IMG/VR virus record: IMGVR_UViG_3300030110_004304
Location: 27,346-91,345 of that record
Length of the DNA: 64,000 nt
Direction: 5' to 3' (one strand)
Origin: a virus
Shown here: in pieces, positions 215 through 63,910 of the stretch
How positions within the stretch are numbered: the first letter of the stretch is position 1
How the letters are laid out: each line of letters starts with the position of its first letter
Translations under genes and position numbers: made by a program
Notes under the pieces: model-generated
Databases searched by the model: none
The model's input: the letters and a program-made list of their open reading frames with translations, nothing else
Told to the model about the DNA's origin: nothing

Positions 215-3200
215 ATGGCAATGAAAAAACATAATAACACTTATGGTAAAGGCCTAAATGTTGATACCGCTTTTGATAGCATGCCTGCCAATATGTATAT
301 CGATGCTATGGATGTTAGAATAACAACTGCAGACGGAGAAAGCACAGGGGCTATAACTAATCTTCAAGGTAACGAAGAAGCTTTTAAAATAAACCAAGCC
401 GGTGCAACAGGATTAAAAGAAATAATAGGAGTAGGATTTATTAGAAATATTATAATTCTTTTCTGTGCAGATGATACTGGGACTAATGGTTGGATGTATT
501 ATGTAACTTATGACGAACAAACTAGAAAAATAACTAGTGGAGCTCAGGCTCCTCTTTTGTATGATGGTGATGGAAACCCTAACTTATTAGGTTTCAGCAA
601 AGACTGGCCAATAGAAGCCCAAGGAAGATATGAATCTGATTGCGTACAAAGAATATATTGGACAGATTATAACAACTCACTAAGAAGTTTATTAATTGAA
701 GATTTTACAAGTATTCCAGCTGGAGGATTATCATTAGACATTAGTGTAATTGATATATTTCCTGAAGTAACATACACACAGCCAATATTAACTAATGTTG
801 CTTTTGGGGGAACACTTCTTGCAGGAGAGTACCAATTTGCATATAGACTAATTACAGAAGACGGTAAACAAACTTTAATATCTCCTCCTGGAAACCTAAT
901 ACATCTAACAAGCGACTCAGAAGCTACTAGTACTAGTAGACGATATATGGGAGATCCCAAAGGTACTAATACTAATAAAAGTTTAGAAATTACAATAGAC
1001 ACAAGTGATTATGTAAATAAATTTGAAAGAATAGAATTAATATCAGTATTCTTTGAAGAATATGGGGGCACTCCTTTAGTACAATCTGTCGAAACTCAAG
1101 GAATAGGAGTATTAACTGAAATAAATTTTATTTATACAGGCCAAGAAAACACAATAGTAGATTTACCTTTAGCAGAGTTTGCTATTAAAGTATATCCTTT
1201 TAGCACCTGCAAAACAATGGTCCCTAAAGATAACTCTTTAGTTGTTGCTAATATAAAACAAACTAAGTTTGATATAAACGAATTATTAGAACCAGGAGAG
1301 ACTTTAGATTTAATGACAAAAAGATATAATAGTAGTAGTGAGTTACCTTTTACAGACGGACTAGTTAATCCGCTGGCACTTGTGCCAGGTACTCTTTACG
1401 AAGAAAAAGATGAAGTATTTAATCTTCCTTATAATCTAGATCAACATTGGGAAGGACCTTGGCACGAAGAACAACAATTTAAATATCAAGCTGATGGTTC
1501 TACTATGGGGGGACAATCTTTAGACGATGGTGTGAATCCTTCTAATCTATCCTATAAGTTTGCCCTAAGTCTTGATATAATAGATGACAGTAGTCAACCA
1601 GGTTTAGCAGAATTAACCAATACCTTTCCAAATGAGATTATTAATCTAAATGATGGTTATACGTACACTAATAAAAGTTTTCGCTCTAAAGCATCTCCCT
1701 ACAAAAGTGGATTAACCAGAGGCTATAAAAGAGGAGAAGTTTATCGTTTTGGTGTAGTATTTTATAATAAAAAAGGAGAGTCTTCTTATGTAGAATATAT
1801 TGGTGATATTAAGATGCCTGATATTTCAGAAGAAGCAGGCTATACAACAGTGACCGTTCCTGGTCCTGGAGCTAAAGACTTTTTTCCTATATCTTCAGCT
1901 GCATCTAGTGGTGCTACAGTTCCAAACGATTATACTTATGGTCATGATTTAGGATTAAAAATAGATTTAGATTTTACATCTTGTCCTAGTATATTAGACA
2001 AAATAACTTCTTTCCAAATAGTAAGATGTAAAAGAACAGATGTTGATAAAAGAAGACCCGCTTCTGGTATAATTAAATCATATCATTTTCCAGATATAGG
2101 TTCAAACCCACATTACGATCCTGATCCAGAAGATAGAGAAGGTTATGAATGGGACAGTCCCGATGGAAATATTTTACATTTATATTGGACAAAACCCACT
2201 GGCTTTATGCCATCTGAGAGTGGAAAACCTTTTGCTGGTAGTTGGTATTCTTTTAATAATAATTGGAACACATATCGAAGATTTTCAGCTGATGAAAACT
2301 ATAGTCCAATATATGGAGATTTCTTAGCTTTCTACAGTCCTGAAGTATCTTATAATTTTAACAGACAAAATCTTGAAGGAGCTGGAAAAGCACTTTTAAT
2401 TACAGGTTCATATGCTGACTACGGCCTTATTTGGCAAGGTGCATCATCTACTACTAGATATTATACTAGTACTCTACATGATGAAATTTATGGAACTAAT
2501 CAAAATAATCAAGAATTAGGATGTGACATATGGGAACAATATTTTAAAGTACGAACAACTAATAGAATAGATAGAGAAACCGTAGCTGAACAACCAGATG
2601 GTACTCTAGATACTGTATATGATGGAGGAGCAGGTTATCCAATATCATATAGAGGAATAGAATATGTAAGACAATTTAACAATGCTGGCGTATTCACAGA
2701 TTTTGAAAAGGCTCAAGAAGATGTTGAACGAGGAGATAGAATGAGTAAAATTATAAAAACGTATGGTCCTCTAGTTTCGAGCCCTCCTACTCCTACTTCT
2801 TTTTATATAAGACCTGTTTATGTTTTTGTAGGAAATGAAGGAGCTGTTGGAACAGATGATCCTGATGATTGTCCTTGTGCAGTATCTCAACCAGGTCGTA
2901 GTCTTGGTGGTAATAATTGTGGATATGGAGGAATAGGAAGAGGATCAGTCTGCTTAACAGTGAATACTACTAATATATTTACCAATCCTTATACAAGTAA
3001 TCCCGTTGTTGTTGGATCAACTGGAGTTGCTTTTCCTACAACTCCTACTAATGCTGTTGCTGGATCAGTAACCGATCCATGTTTTGGAGGTCCTAGCACA
3101 TGGACAGGTAGTTTTGGTTATGTTTGGCCAGAGTTTCCTGATCAAAATTTTATCCCCAGTCCTTCAGGCAATGATTTTTTAAACAACATTATGAATACTC

Positions 3201-5083
3201 CAGTAGTAGACGTTATGTTGTTTAAGCAAGAAATTTACGGAGGATATACTAACTCTGCTTTACAGAATAATATATTTGTTCCCTGTTCGCCTGTAGTTAC
3301 AACAGCACCTGTAATATCTAATTTAGAAGTTTACGGAGGAGATACTTTTATAGGAATGTATAGTATGCAAACAAGAAGTATGATTCTAGATGAGTATCCT
3401 TTTCCTAATGGATTTACAGCAGGTAATGATGAGTATAGATATGAAGCCAATGGAGGTTGCACGGAAGCTATTCCAGTAGAAACCCAAGTAAATTTAGACT
3501 TAGCTATGGGAGGTACTTATAAAACTAATTCACAAGCTTATTGGGTCTATTCTGGAGTTGCAGAAATAGAAGGATTCCTTAGACAAGAAGTAGGTAATTT
3601 ATCTGATTCAGGGGGTAGTGGTACTTGGGCTAAAGTAAACGATGCGTATAACAATGCTTATAATCAAGTATACTCAGTAGAGCCTGCAGATAATACTTTA
3701 GGATTTTTCATCAAGCCTGGAAGTGCAACTGGTTGTGGAATAAATGATATTAGAGCATTCTTATCGGATGTTAAGATAAACGAAGAAGAAGTAGATTCTT
3801 GGTCTATATTTAGAGCCAATAATTATTATGATATAGAAGCTCAGTTTGGGCCCATAAATAAAATAGAAAATTGGAGAGACGAAGTATTCTTTTTCCAAGA
3901 TACTGGCGTAGGAAAGTATAGTATAAACCCAAGAGCAGTAACAACAACAGAAGATGGTATACCTACGCAATTAGGTTCTGGACAAGGATTCCAACATCAC
4001 CAATATCTAAGTACTGAAAACGGATCTATACATCAGTGGGCAGTAAAAGCTACAGATACTGGAATATACTACTTCGATGCTATGAATAAAAAGATATTCA
4101 GAATAGGTGGCCAAGGAAACGAGCCTCTTTCAACTATGAAAGGTATGCACGGTTTCTTAGCTAATTTTAATGGAACAGTATTAAGAAGAAAAGAAACTGA
4201 TCAAGCTATAAGTTTAGGAGGAGATAATCCAATACAGAATAGAGGCGTTGTATTTTCTAGAGACCAACAAAACGATGAAGTACTAATGACTTTCTTAGGA
4301 ATGTATAAAGTAGTAGGATTAACTAATAACATTAACTATGAAGCAGGTACTATTGTACAAATAACTCCTGGTGGCGGAGGAACAATACAATATTGGATAG
4401 TGTATGAAAGCTACACAAGTGATCCCGCTGCTTCCTCTCCAGCACTACAAGCAGAACTATCCACTAAAGCTAGTTGGGTAGATACAGATACTAGAGAAGG
4501 TAGGTTATTATATAGTATCTTACAAAAAGGAGATGGAGGAAAAAGTACTTTAGTATTTGATGAGGTTGCCCAAGCATTCTCTTCATTCTATTCTTCTACT
4601 CCAGGACTTTATATAGAAAATAGCAATATTTTAATGAGTGCGAAAAAATCTAAAGAAGGAGATGAGTTTATAGCCTACACTCATAATAAAGGAAAGTACG
4701 GAGAGTTCTATGGAAGTATTGAAGAAAGTAGTATAAGCTTAGTTATAAATCCAGATGCTGATATAAACAAAATACTTAGATTTATAGAATTTGGTTCTCA
4801 GGTAAAAGAAATAGGAGGAGACATAGATAGGAGTACTACTATCACTGCTTTTAGAGTAGAAAACGAGTACCAGGACACTACTAAAACTGCTTACAGCCCA
4901 AGTAATATAAAAAGAAGATTTGATAAATGGAGAGTTAAATTGCCTAGAGATCAGAAAAGTTCTTCAAAAAGAGGACGTTTAAGAAGTACTCATTTTGTTT
5001 TAACTTTGTATTTTAATAACTTAGATAACAAGGAGTTAGTACTTAATAGGATAACTTCTCACTATGATGTACAGGTATACTAA
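215..5083 (+). CDS. crAss-like tail stabilisation/hub protein (P22 gp10-like)
   Basis: 1622 aa with RIYWTDYNN, GYKRGEVYRFGVVFY, FGPINKI...FFQD, YYFDA and IKRRFDKW motifs typical of crAss-like tail stabilisation proteins; lies upstream of the cargo/RNAP genes. Confidence 0.75.
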   Translation: MAMKKHNNTYGKGLNVDTAFDSMPANMYIDAMDVRITTADGESTGAITNLQGNEEAFKINQAGATGLKEIIGVGFIRNIIILFCADDTGTNGWMYYVTYDEQTRKITSGAQAPLLYDGDGNPNLLGFSKDWPIEAQGRYESDCVQRIYWTDYNNSLRSLLIEDFTSIPAGGLSLDISVIDIFPEVTYTQPILTNVAFGGTLLAGEYQFAYRLITEDGKQTLISPPGNLIHLTSDSEATSTSRRYMGDPKGTNTNKSLEITIDTSDYVNKFERIELISVFFEEYGGTPLVQSVETQGIGVLTEINFIYTGQENTIVDLPLAEFAIKVYPFSTCKTMVPKDNSLVVANIKQTKFDINELLEPGETLDLMTKRYNSSSELPFTDGLVNPLALVPGTLYEEKDEVFNLPYNLDQHWEGPWHEEQQFKYQADGSTMGGQSLDDGVNPSNLSYKFALSLDIIDDSSQPGLAELTNTFPNEIINLNDGYTYTNKSFRSKASPYKSGLTRGYKRGEVYRFGVVFYNKKGESSYVEYIGDIKMPDISEEAGYTTVTVPGPGAKDFFPISSAASSGATVPNDYTYGHDLGLKIDLDFTSCPSILDKITSFQIVRCKRTDVDKRRPASGIIKSYHFPDIGSNPHYDPDPEDREGYEWDSPDGNILHLYWTKPTGFMPSESGKPFAGSWYSFNNNWNTYRRFSADENYSPIYGDFLAFYSPEVSYNFNRQNLEGAGKALLITGSYADYGLIWQGASSTTRYYTSTLHDEIYGTNQNNQELGCDIWEQYFKVRTTNRIDRETVAEQPDGTLDTVYDGGAGYPISYRGIEYVRQFNNAGVFTDFEKAQEDVERGDRMSKIIKTYGPLVSSPPTPTSFYIRPVYVFVGNEGAVGTDDPDDCPCAVSQPGRSLGGNNCGYGGIGRGSVCLTVNTTNIFTNPYTSNPVVVGSTGVAFPTTPTNAVAGSVTDPCFGGPSTWTGSFGYVWPEFPDQNFIPSPSGNDFLNNIMNTPVVDVMLFKQEIYGGYTNSALQNNIFVPCSPVVTTAPVISNLEVYGGDTFIGMYSMQTRSMILDEYPFPNGFTAGNDEYRYEANGGCTEAIPVETQVNLDLAMGGTYKTNSQAYWVYSGVAEIEGFLRQEVGNLSDSGGSGTWAKVNDAYNNAYNQVYSVEPADNTLGFFIKPGSATGCGINDIRAFLSDVKINEEEVDSWSIFRANNYYDIEAQFGPINKIENWRDEVFFFQDTGVGKYSINPRAVTTTEDGIPTQLGSGQGFQHHQYLSTENGSIHQWAVKATDTGIYYFDAMNKKIFRIGGQGNEPLSTMKGMHGFLANFNGTVLRRKETDQAISLGGDNPIQNRGVVFSRDQQNDEVLMTFLGMYKVVGLTNNINYEAGTIVQITPGGGGTIQYWIVYESYTSDPAASSPALQAELSTKASWVDTDTREGRLLYSILQKGDGGKSTLVFDEVAQAFSSFYSSTPGLYIENSNILMSAKKSKEGDEFIAYTHNKGKYGEFYGSIEESSISLVINPDADINKILRFIEFGSQVKEIGGDIDRSTTITAFRVENEYQDTTKTAYSPSNIKRRFDKWRVKLPRDQKSSSKRGRLRSTHFVLTLYFNNLDNKELVLNRITSHYDVQVY

Positions 5084-58840: not shown

Positions 58841-59031
58841 TTTATGATTTTTTAAATGATTATTTTGATTTATTTTATGCTCTTAGAAATGGGAACAGAT
58901 TTATCATTACAGTATATATACATCGGATCCTACGCATCTAGCGTTTCAGTATTGTTTTATCCGTGATAATTGGTAATAGTAAAAATCTTATTGTTAACGA
59001 TAAGAGCGTCGTACGTTAACTCCCAATAAGT

Positions 59032-59139
59032 TTAATTTTTAGGGTTTCTAAGTTGTTTTATTAATGCATATAATTTTACATTAACATTGTCCCAGTACTT
59101 CATCCAGTCTGGGTTAGTTTTTTTATTCTTTGTTTTCAT
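59032..59139 (-). CDS. 35-aa basic peptide (not in ORF track)
   Basis: MKTKNKKTNPDWMKYWDNVNVKLYALIKQLRNPKN*. Confidence 0.4.
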   Translation of the reverse strand: MKTKNKKTNPDWMKYWDNVNVKLYALIKQLRNPKN

Positions 59140-60983: not shown

Positions 60984-61562
60984 TTATTGATAAGTATAAT
61001 GTCCTACTATTCTAGCACTAAATAGAAAATCGTCAATATTCTGACCACTCCCTATATTATGTACTACCAAGTAACGTTTACCATCACTTGATTTTCTATC
61101 CACAACCAATCCAACATGATCTAATGTTCCCAGCTTCCAACATACGATGTCACCAGGCTTATAATCATTAGGATTTGTAGTAATAGGTAAGACTTTACCT
61201 TTTCTTTTAAAAAATACGTGCATATTTGATACTCTTCTGTGATCTATGTCAGTATTTGGTCGTTTTACCTTCCAGTACTTATCAACATTGGCTTTAATAT
61301 CTAAATGCATGTCTTTTTGTAAATCTATACCAACTTTTCGATATGCTCTAATGATAACATCAGTGCATACTCCTATGTGAGGTGGTACATCCCCATTAGG
61401 ATAGTCTATTTTTCTATACGAACCATCATAAACAACATAATCGTGGCTTATGAGGATACCAGCATTAGATAGTTTCTCTGAGAAACCCTGTGCTGTTGTT
61501 ATTATAGTCAAACACAAGCTTAGTATAATTAGCAGTGCAGACTTCTTCATTATTTGTTTCAT
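60984..61562 (-). CDS. DUF1287 (YijF-like) secreted NlpC/P60-superfamily protein
   Basis: Signal peptide; YDGSY..I.YPNGDVP..GVCTDVIIRAYR, IDHRRV, PGDIV.W, HVG.V, VHNIG.G. Confidence 0.9.
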   Translation of the reverse strand: MKQIMKKSALLIILSLCLTIITTAQGFSEKLSNAGILISHDYVVYDGSYRKIDYPNGDVPPHIGVCTDVIIRAYRKVGIDLQKDMHLDIKANVDKYWKVKRPNTDIDHRRVSNMHVFFKRKGKVLPITTNPNDYKPGDIVCWKLGTLDHVGLVVDRKSSDGKRYLVVHNIGSGQNIDDFLFSARIVGHYTYQ

Positions 61563-61864: not shown

Positions 61865-62062
61865 TTAAACTGTTTCAGGATTATAGTAAATCTTAGTCAA
61901 TTCAATACGATAAACATAAAAAGGAATATGTATAATAAATTCATGTTTAGATTTCTCTCCATTTCGATATGTAAACGATTCATAGCCAAAAGACAAACCA
62001 AAGGCTTTAATCTTTTCACCATAAGAGTTCCATTGTCTTTTAATACAAGTTAATTTTTTCAT
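61865..62062 (-). CDS. Hypothetical protein
   Basis: 65 aa, A-rich start context. Confidence 0.6.
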   Translation of the reverse strand: MKKLTCIKRQWNSYGEKIKAFGLSFGYESFTYRNGEKSKHEFIIHIPFYVYRIELTKIYYNPETV

Positions 62063-62724
62063 AATTGATAAATATTTAAGTTAATAATAGGTAAGGAAAA
62101 ATTTAGGACTGTTTTTTATGATTAAACAGTCCCATTACTGTTTTTACTCTTTTTATACAGGTCAGAGTCTTAGAACCTAGGATATCTTTAGTGTATCATT
62201 GTACTGTCTGGTAATTAGAAGGTCCAGACTACCTTTAAAGAGTTTGTATAAGAAGTAAGAGTGCAGACTCCAGGATTTTACCCACTATTTTCGCTGGTGG
62301 TTACCCTACCAATGTCTTAAGCTATTGATGCTGCCGTTTGTTTTCGTTAGAGTTAATTTATTATGACTCTTACTTCTTTGCCCATAACTGAGACTTCTCT
62401 CATAATGTTATGGGACTAGTATTTTTTGTAAGTCTCACCGATTTCCTTACACACTTTCACTAATAATAGCTCGTACCACACAGGTGTGGGAAAGTTAATT
62501 TGCATTGTAAGTAACAACTTTTACTTGGTCATGTATGCCACCATTAGTGATTGTTGATCACGTCTATCATCTTTAATATTTGTTGAAGCGAGGTGCCAGG
62601 CAAAGACCTGCAGGATTTTGGGCATCCAGCTCTTTCACAAGCTGTCATCCCCCACTTCAATTCGATAAGACACAAATGGGACTATAGTGATCAATTATAG
62701 AGGCATTCGTGTCCTTTAATTTGT

Positions 62725-62826
62725 TACTAGTGATGAGATTCGAACTCATACTCGTGGACTTCTGTACGTAACCACGCTCCGCGTTGCTGAGCACCATTAC
62801 CTAGGTAGTACTCAGTTGCCACTAGT
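62725..62826 (-). ncRNA. tRNA-like element (non-canonical)
   Basis: Perfect 7-bp acceptor ACTAGTG/CACTAGT stacked on T-arm ATGAG-TTCGAAT-CTCAT; enlarged D-region hairpin; 14-nt loop on stem CGTGG/CCACG; no encoded CCA. Confidence 0.7.
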
Positions 62827-63168
62827 TAATTATATCAATTAGCCAAGCTTGCCCTCTTGTTGCGTTGTTTAACGACCAGATAGCTACCAGGTCCGGCAAC
62901 GTTGCCAGACACTTTTTCCTGAACTTAGATGAAATGGAGACTCATTGCACCACAATCATCCAGTGGTATGTACTTCAGTGTGCTGAACAACTTACTTGGC
63001 TAATAATTACTTATATCTGCAAGGTTCTAATCCTTGAAATGTATCCCGGTGTAGGATTTTCAATTGGTGCTATACCATACCTTTTCCTTAAGGGCTGAAT
63101 TTTAATCTAATGTCCAGTGTTAGTGGATAATAGAACCGTGTCAAAGGGTAACAATGCTATTGCACAGA

Positions 63169-63384
63169 TAATAAGTTTAAGCAGAGCAAACTCGTCAGTT
63201 TAATACTCTCAGAGGTTTAGTTAGCTAAACATGTAGTATGAACCCTACTTAGATAATAAGTTTGCAGGTCACATGGAGCTCAAGAGTGGTCTTAACACGC
63301 ATTACGAGGAGCTACCTCAACTTGAATATTTATCAGAATCCTGTCTTTATAATTTCTGTTGGACCCCATGTGATTAATAAGTTT
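63169..63384 (-). repeat. Three copies of TAATAAGTTT (minus strand AAACTTATTA)
   Basis: Exact 10-mers at 63169-63178, 63254-63263 and 63375-63384. Confidence 0.75.
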
Positions 63385-63625
63385 AAGCTATAAATATAAT
63401 AAAAAGGAACTAATCAGCTTGTACTCCCACAAGCTAATTAGTGTTGTTAAGGCCTAGAAAAGGCTTAAGCGTTTTCGTTAACTAACCACGAGATAGTGGT
63501 GATAACTCCAAAATGATTGATGTATCTTTTCATTTCTTCACAGTATTAAAAGGTTATTGCAATAAATTCTACTGTATTGCGTCAGTATGCATACGAAAGC
63601 GTTACCTCCAAGAGGAGTTCTAGCA

Positions 63626-63910
63626 TTACGCTAGAACTGCTTGGAAGAACCCGTCCTCATCGGCATCACCGATGAACTTAACCTGACCAGTTACATCCTG
63701 ACCCGCGGTTAGCTGAGCTTCAGCATCAGCAAGGCTCACGCCTCTGTTAAGAGACATACCTCCAGTAAAGGTCTGGTCTTTCAAACCACCGAACGCAGTG
63801 GTAACTTGTTGGATACACACCCAAACTCTAGGCCCCTTAGTGCCTGTTGGCTGATCGTTCTCATAGATTTCAGACTCATACTCTGTTAAAGATTTAATTA
63901 AATATTTCAT
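63626..63910 (-). CDS. Hypothetical early protein
   Basis: 94-aa ORF, A-rich start context, protein-like composition. Confidence 0.7.
   Translation of the reverse strand: MKYLIKSLTEYESEIYENDQPTGTKGPRVWVCIQQVTTAFGGLKDQTFTGGMSLNRGVSLADAEAQLTAGQDVTGQVKFIGDADEDGFFQAVLA

Follow-up and report, generated by a model that had tools for sequence, protein, structure and literature searches.

The stretch of DNA analysed here, called the window below, comprises 64,000 nucleotides (nt) and corresponds to bases 27346-91345 of a virus record in IMG/VR that spans 91,345 bp (IMGVR_UViG_3300030110_004304), covering its right two-thirds. A 99-bp repeat at the ends of this record points to a circular assembly. 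The phage, referred to as W in the following, encodes very large virion proteins on its plus strand, and a block of minus-strand genes comprises PolA, helicases, primase and rIIA/rIIB. The DNA polymerase of W comes closest to those of crAss-like phages, with 36-40% identity, the single best match being that of a Leptolyngbya phage at 46%; by sequence, W can be classed as an uncultured member of the crAss-like phages, a group that counts among the most abundant of all known phages. The subject of this analysis is a putative array of RNA modules, located 0.7-2.2 kb inside the minus-strand arm, as counted from a divergent strand switch at genome positions 300-648, with only two small genes upstream of it. 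It is flanked by the genes of a 94-amino-acid (aa) protein (63626-63910; positions not marked otherwise refer to the window) and a 65-aa protein (61865-62062, start codon at 62062), both on the minus strand like the array itself, and the genes near it belong to no informative family. An initial annotation had described 62100-63620 as a series of folded RNA domains, devoid of a credible open reading frame (ORF) and of higher G+C content than the remaining intergenic DNA. The longest ORFs between 62063 and 63625 span 46 aa on the minus and 77 aa on the plus strand (translation table 11), and no convincing frame appeared when TGA was read as tryptophan, or TAG or TAA as glutamine; the absence of a credible ORF thus holds under four genetic codes. 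The compositional difference is equally real, as the G+C content of the tract is 0.36-0.45, compared to approximately 0.30 in its surroundings, with no change in GC skew.

Relatives of the locus (L-numbered loci) were drawn from IMG/VR by means of the neighbouring proteins and one DNA pattern, which yielded no more than about eight related contigs; searching with a profile of the 94-aa neighbour added no further phage, and a blastn search of the region against 50,697 GenBank phages returned no match. Eight distinct contigs share one layout, in which a micro-ORF of 22-25 aa is followed by a terminator hairpin, an invariant 17-mer and a variable array (Table 1). The micro-ORF is conserved as a peptide, with nucleotide changes sparing the residues of the consensus M-(K/D)-x-(Y/F)-(I/V)-x-x-(N/H/F)-G-V, which leads to a C-terminal N-x-N-A or MIADR(G), and the terminator hairpin is kept in L003/L004 despite a changed stem sequence. 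No base of the 17-mer differs among W, L002, L003/L090, L004/L091, L099, L100, L105 and L107, whereas its flanks have diverged. When W is aligned with L002, L003 and L004, similarity stops within a few bases past the 17-mer, and the protein encoded upstream of the lead-in belongs to three unrelated families among the relatives. Thus, of the extent originally assigned to folded RNA, the array proper occupies approximately 63393-62100, while the right-hand 220 nt consist of micro-ORF and terminator, not of RNA domains. The stop codon of the micro-ORF lies in a small hairpin just ahead of the terminator, a layout resembling that of a leader-peptide attenuator, and L100 carries a second copy of the micro-ORF within its array.

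Table 1. Predicted features of the array locus and of a separate cassette in W. Positions are those of the window; z denotes folding stability relative to shuffled sequences.
Feature	Position	Strand	Description	Evidence or remarks
Micro-ORF	63465..63533	-	22 aa, MKRYINHFGVITTISWLVNENA, followed by the stop codon	amino-acid-level conservation in eight loci
Intrinsic terminator	63399..63442	-	15-pair hairpin (63442-63409) and U-run; predicted end of the upstream unit	terminator scan
17-mer	63377..63393	-	TTATAGCTTAAACTTAT; opens the array directly behind the terminator U-run	identical in eight contigs
Box	63167..63384	-	AAACTTATTA (core of the 17-mer), three copies: 63384-63375, 63263-63254, 63178-63169	each just 5' of M1, M2 and M3, respectively
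M1	63269..63373	-	105 nt, 11-bp closing stem	z -1.8 (minus), -1.3 (plus); no homologue found
M2	63181..63250	-	three hairpins in about 70 nt	z -0.9; matched weakly in L100 by nhmmer (E 0.002)
M3	63014..63170	-	multi-branched fold of 157 nt, closing stem UAUCUG/CAGAUA	87% identical block in L002
M4	62838..63004	-	167 nt, perfect 10-bp closing stem around about five hairpins	fold
M5	62722..62826	-	tRNA look-alike	sequence and fold
M6	62669..62713	-	stable 45-nt hairpin with 3x3 internal loop	z -5.4; 92% identical block in L002
M7	62583..62660	-	78 nt, 11-bp closing stem with two G-U pairs	3' half 94% identical in L107
M8	62457..62550	-	94 nt, 14-bp closing stem (G-U pairs form in the minus strand alone)	z -2.3 (minus), -0.9 (plus)
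M9	62381..62414	-	stable 34-nt hairpin	z -5.0
M10	62250..62378	-	129 nt, perfect 13-bp closing stem	z -2.3
M11	62153..62243	-	about 90 nt	81% identical block in L107 (after box), also at the end of L100
Terminator-like hairpin	62100..62132	-	11 pairs (62132-62106), then UAAAUUUUU	array end, 38 nt before start codon 62062
Separate box-led cassette	58845..59041	-	TTAAACTTATT and about 190 nt of predicted folded RNA, outside the array	kept in L107 (nhmmer E 6.5e-25) and L003

Behind the 17-mer, the content of the array differs from phage to phage. All-against-all comparison of the loci revealed shared blocks of 50-170 nt in varying combinations and orders, and some block edges coincide with predicted domain borders. 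W and L002 have only M3 and M6 in common, W and L107 only the 3' part of M7 and M11; the 94-aa-family neighbour proteins of the latter two phages are 46% identical, compared to 81-94% for their shared modules. Modules of L002, in turn, recur in L003 and L100 at 88-94% identity and in L166, in another order, at 93-98.6%. Replacement also occurs inside modules. The M3 block of L002, which begins at the box, ends with the closing stem and was the only match when an 18-mer from M3 served as a probe, has one internal sub-hairpin replaced, and the M7 counterpart in L107 keeps the closing stem, with both G-U pairs changed to A-U, around a replaced and enlarged 5' interior. From M4, a 3' segment of 26 nt (CGTTAAACAACGCAACAAGAGGGCAA) is found in L100 with three changes. 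One module family, present in L100, L105 and L107, is composed of the box, approximately 70 nt and an intrinsic terminator of its own, with two compensatory pairs, and because of this build we regard it, by its sequence, as a self-contained small-RNA gene. Collecting the syntenic regions, a check that the initial annotation had called for, thus brought to light a conserved lead-in, exchanged modules and, in some of the relatives' modules, covariation.

The folding statistics were considered for the array as a whole and for its parts. A 1.29-kb fold of the array reached a z-score of -4.06 on the minus and -2.21 on the plus strand, compared to -2.34 and -0.34 for one equally long coding control, and a 901-nt fold gave -3.9 and -2.0 against shuffles. 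In seven of nine modules, too, the fold of the minus strand is the more stable one. Together with the T-loop sequence UUCGAAU in M5, the U-run terminators and the G-U pairs, this agrees with the claim that the RNA would be read from the minus strand, which is also that of the flanking genes. Stems listed from inspection are indeed present, among them 62250-62262/62366-62378 (13 bp, perfect), 62838-62847/62995-63004 (10 bp, perfect), 62106-62114/62124-62132, 62381-62388/62407-62414, 62457-62464/62543-62550 and 63269/63373. Their number carries no weight, as it equals the genome background, and stem counting was dropped as evidence for an RNA locus.

Based on the results above, we consider it probable, at roughly 0.6, that the minus strand of 63393-62100 encodes non-coding RNA: about eleven modules of 35-170 nt, each folding on its own, would lie in a row between two terminator hairpins and be processed to small RNAs. 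Transcription would restart at or near the 17-mer, behind the upstream terminator, and run to the hairpin at 62132-62106. The precursor may then be cut into stable small RNAs, for which the A/U-rich linkers, some of them with a AAACUUAUUA box, are candidate sites, as the long hairpins M6 and M9 may be too; at M5, a further candidate site, the cuts would be made by host RNase P and 3' trimming enzymes, for which it could provide a handle. The modules would act as exchangeable cassettes behind a lead-in that is kept, with sets and orders differing between phages, as is typical of accessory or counter-defence loci.

A number of observations weigh against this reading. The thermodynamic support is moderate: the array as a whole is moderately more stable than its shuffles, so that the proposed comparison with shuffled sequences came out in favour of the array at full length, but most single modules, with borders set on their closing stems, lie between -0.9 and -2.3, two plain hairpins stand at about -5, and fixed 120-nt windows fold unremarkably, like coding DNA. 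M11 is conserved in sequence, yet no stable fold is predicted for it (z +0.75). Ungapped helices of at least 10 bp (G-U allowed) number 11 in the array, compared to an average of 11-13 in windows of this size across the genome, and perfect inverted repeats of at least 9 nt number two, with a mean of 1.3; since helix counts are at background and module z-scores modest, thermodynamics alone leaves the nature of the locus undecided. No alignable full-length homologue was found for M1, M4, M5, M8, M9 and M10, and only a weak match for M2, so that the folds of these modules are predictions; with the few related contigs in IMG/VR, most W modules lack a homologue usable for fold testing. Of 33 block edges, 5 have a strict box at a distance of 15 nt or less, where 2.5 are expected (P ~0.09). 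A promoter role of the 17-mer finds no support in the Bacteroidetes-type consensus TTG-N20-TAnnTTTG, which it does not fit; we read this consensus off the upstream regions of four genes of the Cellulophaga crAss-like phage phi14:2 that are named as middle-promoter genes in the study of that phage (bioRxiv 10.1101/2020.03.07.982082). Finally, the 91-kb phage genome encodes no partner for the handling of RNA among those sought, namely reverse transcriptase (RVT_1), CCA-adding enzyme and Ro60 (TROVE).

The initial annotation had left the choice between one large RNA and a polycistron of small RNAs. The polycistron fits better, because relatives exchange single modules and because one module in three relatives has its own terminator; one giant RNA is disfavoured. 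A single structured RNA of about 1.3 kb that acts as a whole, in the manner of GOLLD or ROOL, would agree with the lack of an intrinsic terminator between 63399 and 62132 in W and with predicted domains that are contiguous and non-overlapping, and long, abundant intergenic RNAs do exist in phi14:2. One co-folding architecture would, however, not tolerate the swapping, loss and reordering of modules seen among the relatives, a module in L100, L105 and L107 has a terminator of its own, and the centroid fold shows no long-range pairing between modules. GOLLD and ROOL resemble the array in being large, ORF-free, structured phage tracts that often lie beside tRNAs, but each is a single conserved architecture, whereas the array of W is a mosaic of exchangeable modules; neither of their models matched W at gathering score or at E<=10, nor did they or any other large RNA model match the relatives' arrays in a search with Rfam. 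We therefore consider a single RNA unlikely.

M5 deserves closer attention, as it bears on both the processing and the origin of the array. The initial annotation had pointed to a tRNA-like domain at 62726-62826, and its acceptor/T-arm half, with a canonical T-loop, was found there. A perfect 7-bp acceptor stem, ACUAGUG/CACUAGU, is stacked on a 5-bp T-stem (AUGAG-UUCGAAU-CUCAU) with the G53-C61 closing pair, and the 3' tail reads A-ACA. Two hairpins foreign to tRNA, with loops of 9-13 nt and 8-14 nt, replace the D and anticodon arms, and there is neither a 7-nt anticodon loop nor a D-arm of the standard type. ARAGORN, run with default settings, reported no tRNA or transfer-messenger RNA (tmRNA) gene in the window or in the whole W genome; M5 gave no match to the tRNA family RF00005 at E<=10 and, at an 80% threshold, merely a poor alternative cloverleaf. 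Nor was a tmRNA detected in W: RF00023 and the permuted form RF04321 had no match at E<=10, the G3-U70 pair and a tag frame, which along with a 3' end in CUCCACCA characterise a tmRNA, are lacking, and ARAGORN in tmRNA mode (-m, 80% threshold) returned a single spurious match within the 94-aa gene. As a positive control, Rfam and ARAGORN do detect the tmRNAs of phi14:2 and of L006.

Several relatives carry a tRNA-like family of their own, GGCARUGC ... T-arm ... UUGCCUC-C/U-A, which occurs in a 68-nt form ending in CCA and in an 86-nt form. When its five distinct sequences are compared, both partners are exchanged in four of the five T-arm pairs while pairing is retained at 100%, and the acceptor end is invariant; neither the covariation score nor the share of paired cells was reached by any of 500 shuffles. 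A covariance model (R1) built from L002, L004, L101, L107 and L166 scores the members of the family at 62-105 bits, and M5 gave no match to it at E<=1. M5 is a tRNA look-alike separate from the GGCARUGC family. In both W and L002, the M6 hairpin lies within about ten bases 3' of a tRNA look-alike, although the look-alikes themselves differ. The combination of acceptor and T-arm without an anticodon domain is known from the tRNA-like domain of tmRNA, from the bacterial Y-RNA-like YrlA, and from mascRNA and the plant-mitochondrial t-elements, the last two serving as processing signals for RNase P and RNase Z. M5 and the GGCARUGC family share with these the 7-bp acceptor on a 5-bp T-arm, the canonical T-loop and the missing anticodon loop. 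In contrast to them, there is no G3-U70, no tag frame, no Ro60 gene in the phage and no match to tRNA, tmRNA or another Rfam family.

Such look-alikes could also be the remains of a decayed cluster of tRNA and tmRNA genes, the tract being a non-functional spacer and M5 a degenerate tRNA. In L006, a more distant relative with a 39%-identical homologue of a 192-aa protein encoded near the array in W, a tRNA-Arg(TCT) gene (4108-4182) and a tmRNA gene (4531-4997; 467 nt, 69.8 bits) do occupy the syntenic place, and L009 has two tRNAs there, while W itself lacks both gene types and M5 the anticodon loop. What speaks against decay is that M5 has a perfect acceptor stem and T stem and that the relatives' look-alikes combine compensatory T-arm changes with an invariant acceptor end. 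Modules are, moreover, 81-99% identical between phages whose neighbour protein is 46% identical, the G+C content of the tract exceeds that of other intergenic DNA, and 1.3 kb of junk is rarely kept by phage genomes. Decay thus appears quite improbable. The tRNA and tmRNA genes of L006 also bear out the likeness to phage RNA loci beside tRNAs that had been noted initially; in that phage, approximately 350 nt of non-coding sequence separate the tRNA-Arg from the tmRNA, all upstream of the DUF1287 gene, the 192-aa homologue just mentioned.

The invariance of the 17-mer raises the further possibility that the tract acts as DNA, for example as an origin, a packaging site or a recombination hot spot, with the 17-mer and its repeats as protein-binding sites and the hairpins as DNA structures, for instance promoters for the injected virion RNA polymerase (RNAP). 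Three copies of the core of the 17-mer are found in a stretch of 220 bp, the 17-mer marks the point at which homology between genomes is lost, the divergent strand switch is 0.7-2.2 kb away, and the virion RNAP of phi14:2 transcribes single-stranded templates in vitro (bioRxiv 10.1101/2020.03.07.982082). The tract is, however, richer in G+C than its surroundings and not AT-rich, it shows no change in GC skew, and the box repeats, spaced at 85-121 bp, do not resemble iterons. T-loops, U-run terminators and G-U pairs are RNA features tied to one strand, and a content that is hypervariable among relatives is unlike an origin. A DNA element at this place is very unlikely. Least probable of all is a string of micro-protein genes for peptides of 20-30 aa: the conserved micro-ORF just upstream and an ATG-started frame of 25 codons in M1 speak for it, but most modules lack an ATG-led frame, box and linkers are rich in stop codons, no frame opens under alternative codes, and the conserved blocks include T-loops and terminator stems.

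For the 17-mer, we are left with a candidate promoter, a candidate processing or recognition site, or a candidate DNA site. The 10-mer box occurs five times in the 91-kb genome, three of them in the array. It was rejected as a general cassette junction, given the P value above and the fact that only some modules are preceded by it. It was likewise rejected as a Bacteroidetes promoter, as it fits TAnnTTTG in antisense only and without the -33 TTG, and the full consensus is absent from the intergenic DNA of W; its seven matches in the whole genome apparently lie within coding regions. W or its host may, by this measure, use promoters other than those of the phi14:2 type. A role of the box within the RNA is slightly favoured, because the box abuts closing stems and a transcription start 6-8 nt downstream would truncate them. 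The exact 17-mer was also seen 4-17 nt before start codons in three independent loci of Flavobacteriaceae (Hyunsoonleella, Arenibacter and Flagellimonas; L115, L119, L125, L127, L129, L134). Its 55 matches in prokaryote genomes are, however, about as many as expected by chance, which renders these placements uninformative. The hairpin at the end of the array was missed by the terminator consensus scan, probably owing to its 9-nt loop, as the scan allows for 8 nt.

Judged by these sequence searches, the array belongs to no catalogued RNA family. A scan of the W region with 4227 Rfam models, at gathering score and at E<=10, returned noise only, such as RefA1 at 19 bits, which matches the earlier statement that no tmRNA, RNase P or signal recognition particle consensus is recognisable. 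There is no Rfam match in the region that would support a YrlA or Y RNA, and the phage has no TROVE-domain gene; a retron RNA finds no RVT_1 match in the 91-kb genome to go with it. Among self-cleaving ribozymes, the hepatitis delta virus (HDV)-like, hatchet, twister, pistol and hammerhead models gave no Rfam match at E<=10, theta models not being among those searched, and a loose descriptor of the HDV fold produced only unconvincing, A/U-rich matches, at a rate similar to that in relatives and controls. Phage T4 encodes small stable RNAs, species 1 and 2 (RNA C and D), together with tRNAs in a single early or middle transcript, from which host tRNA-processing enzymes release them. The locus is linked to such tRNA regions, and to phage clusters of tRNA and tmRNA genes in general, by the genes at the syntenic place in L006 and L009. 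It differs from them in that it contains no decoding tRNA and in the much greater number and variety of its modules, which are, in addition, exchanged between genomes.

The closest parallel is found in phi14:2, where RNAs from the intergenic regions g004-g005 and g005-g006 exceed most genes from the earliest time point on and stay abundant (Drobysheva et al., bioRxiv 10.1101/2020.03.07.982082). In both phages, a tract of 1.3-1.7 kb that contains no ORF lies with the first genes of the early or replication arm and on the same strand as these, expression having been shown for phi14:2 only; if early intergenic tracts of crAss-like phages are defined as ORF-free, longer than 1 kb and located with the first early genes on one strand, the tract of W is one of them. 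That of phi14:2 (2904-4602, 1.7 kb) is ORF-free in the current annotation. Within this tract, in one of the two regions of long non-coding RNA (lncRNA), we found an unannotated and unusually long tmRNA gene of 470 nt at 4031-4500 (L109, NC_021806), for which ARAGORN gives the tag GSSVQKLAMVA before the stop codon and Rfam 46 bits, relative to a cut-off of 47, at E 4.5e-16; it is unmentioned in the published study (bioRxiv 10.1101/2020.03.07.982082). Unlike W, phi14:2 thus has a tmRNA in the tract, the two tracts have no sequence similarity, and neither a 17-mer lead-in nor an exchange of cassettes has been described there. The single transcriptome study of a crAss-like phage left the lncRNAs of the early arm as a question, and the locus described here suggests that, in at least one environmental lineage, this tract is not one RNA.

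By its sequence, the locus looks like a fast-evolving set of small folded RNAs that includes tRNA mimics incapable of decoding and is headed by a strictly conserved signal of 17 nt. Our best guess is that the RNAs are decoys or small RNAs directed at the host, the tRNA look-alikes among them engaging enzymes that bind tRNA. What suggests a counter-defence or decoy role is solely the early position and the rapid turnover, and the idea that the RNAs are decoys for host defence proteins, voiced in the initial annotation, is purely conjectural. It is conceivable, though doubtful, that the array forms an RNA-based counter-defence island, in which a fixed lead-in of micro-ORF attenuator, terminator and 17-mer drives a hypervariable set of small RNAs exchanged horizontally, among them anticodon-less tRNA mimics acting as decoys or inhibitors of tRNA-directed or RNA-sensing defence enzymes of the host. 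If the array is expressed, it would offer a tractable case of accessory or counter-defence phage cargo at the RNA level, new tRNA-like scaffolds for studies of recognition by RNase P, CCA enzyme and defence nucleases, and, in the 17-mer, a marker for finding further arrays. If it is not, the tract would be merely a variable spacer and of little interest.

Two further features of the surrounding DNA were noted. The 192-aa protein mentioned above (60984-61562, minus strand) has a DUF1287 domain (Pfam, 199 bits) and is secreted or lipoprotein-like; its hundreds of bacterial homologues are 47-59% identical, and the gene was probably acquired from a host. When this protein was used for a metagenome scan, a widespread bacterial family was retrieved, with the array sequence in none of 80 loci. 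The second feature is the box-led cassette outside the array (Table 1). One of its hairpins is fully compensated, GUUAACG/CGUUAAC in W and L107 becoming CCAGAG/CUCUGG in L003, while the loop motif GCUCUUA and its partner in the 3' tail, UAAGAGC, are unchanged in L003. A 35-aa ORF (59139-59032, minus strand) precedes this cassette, and its stop codon overlaps the box.

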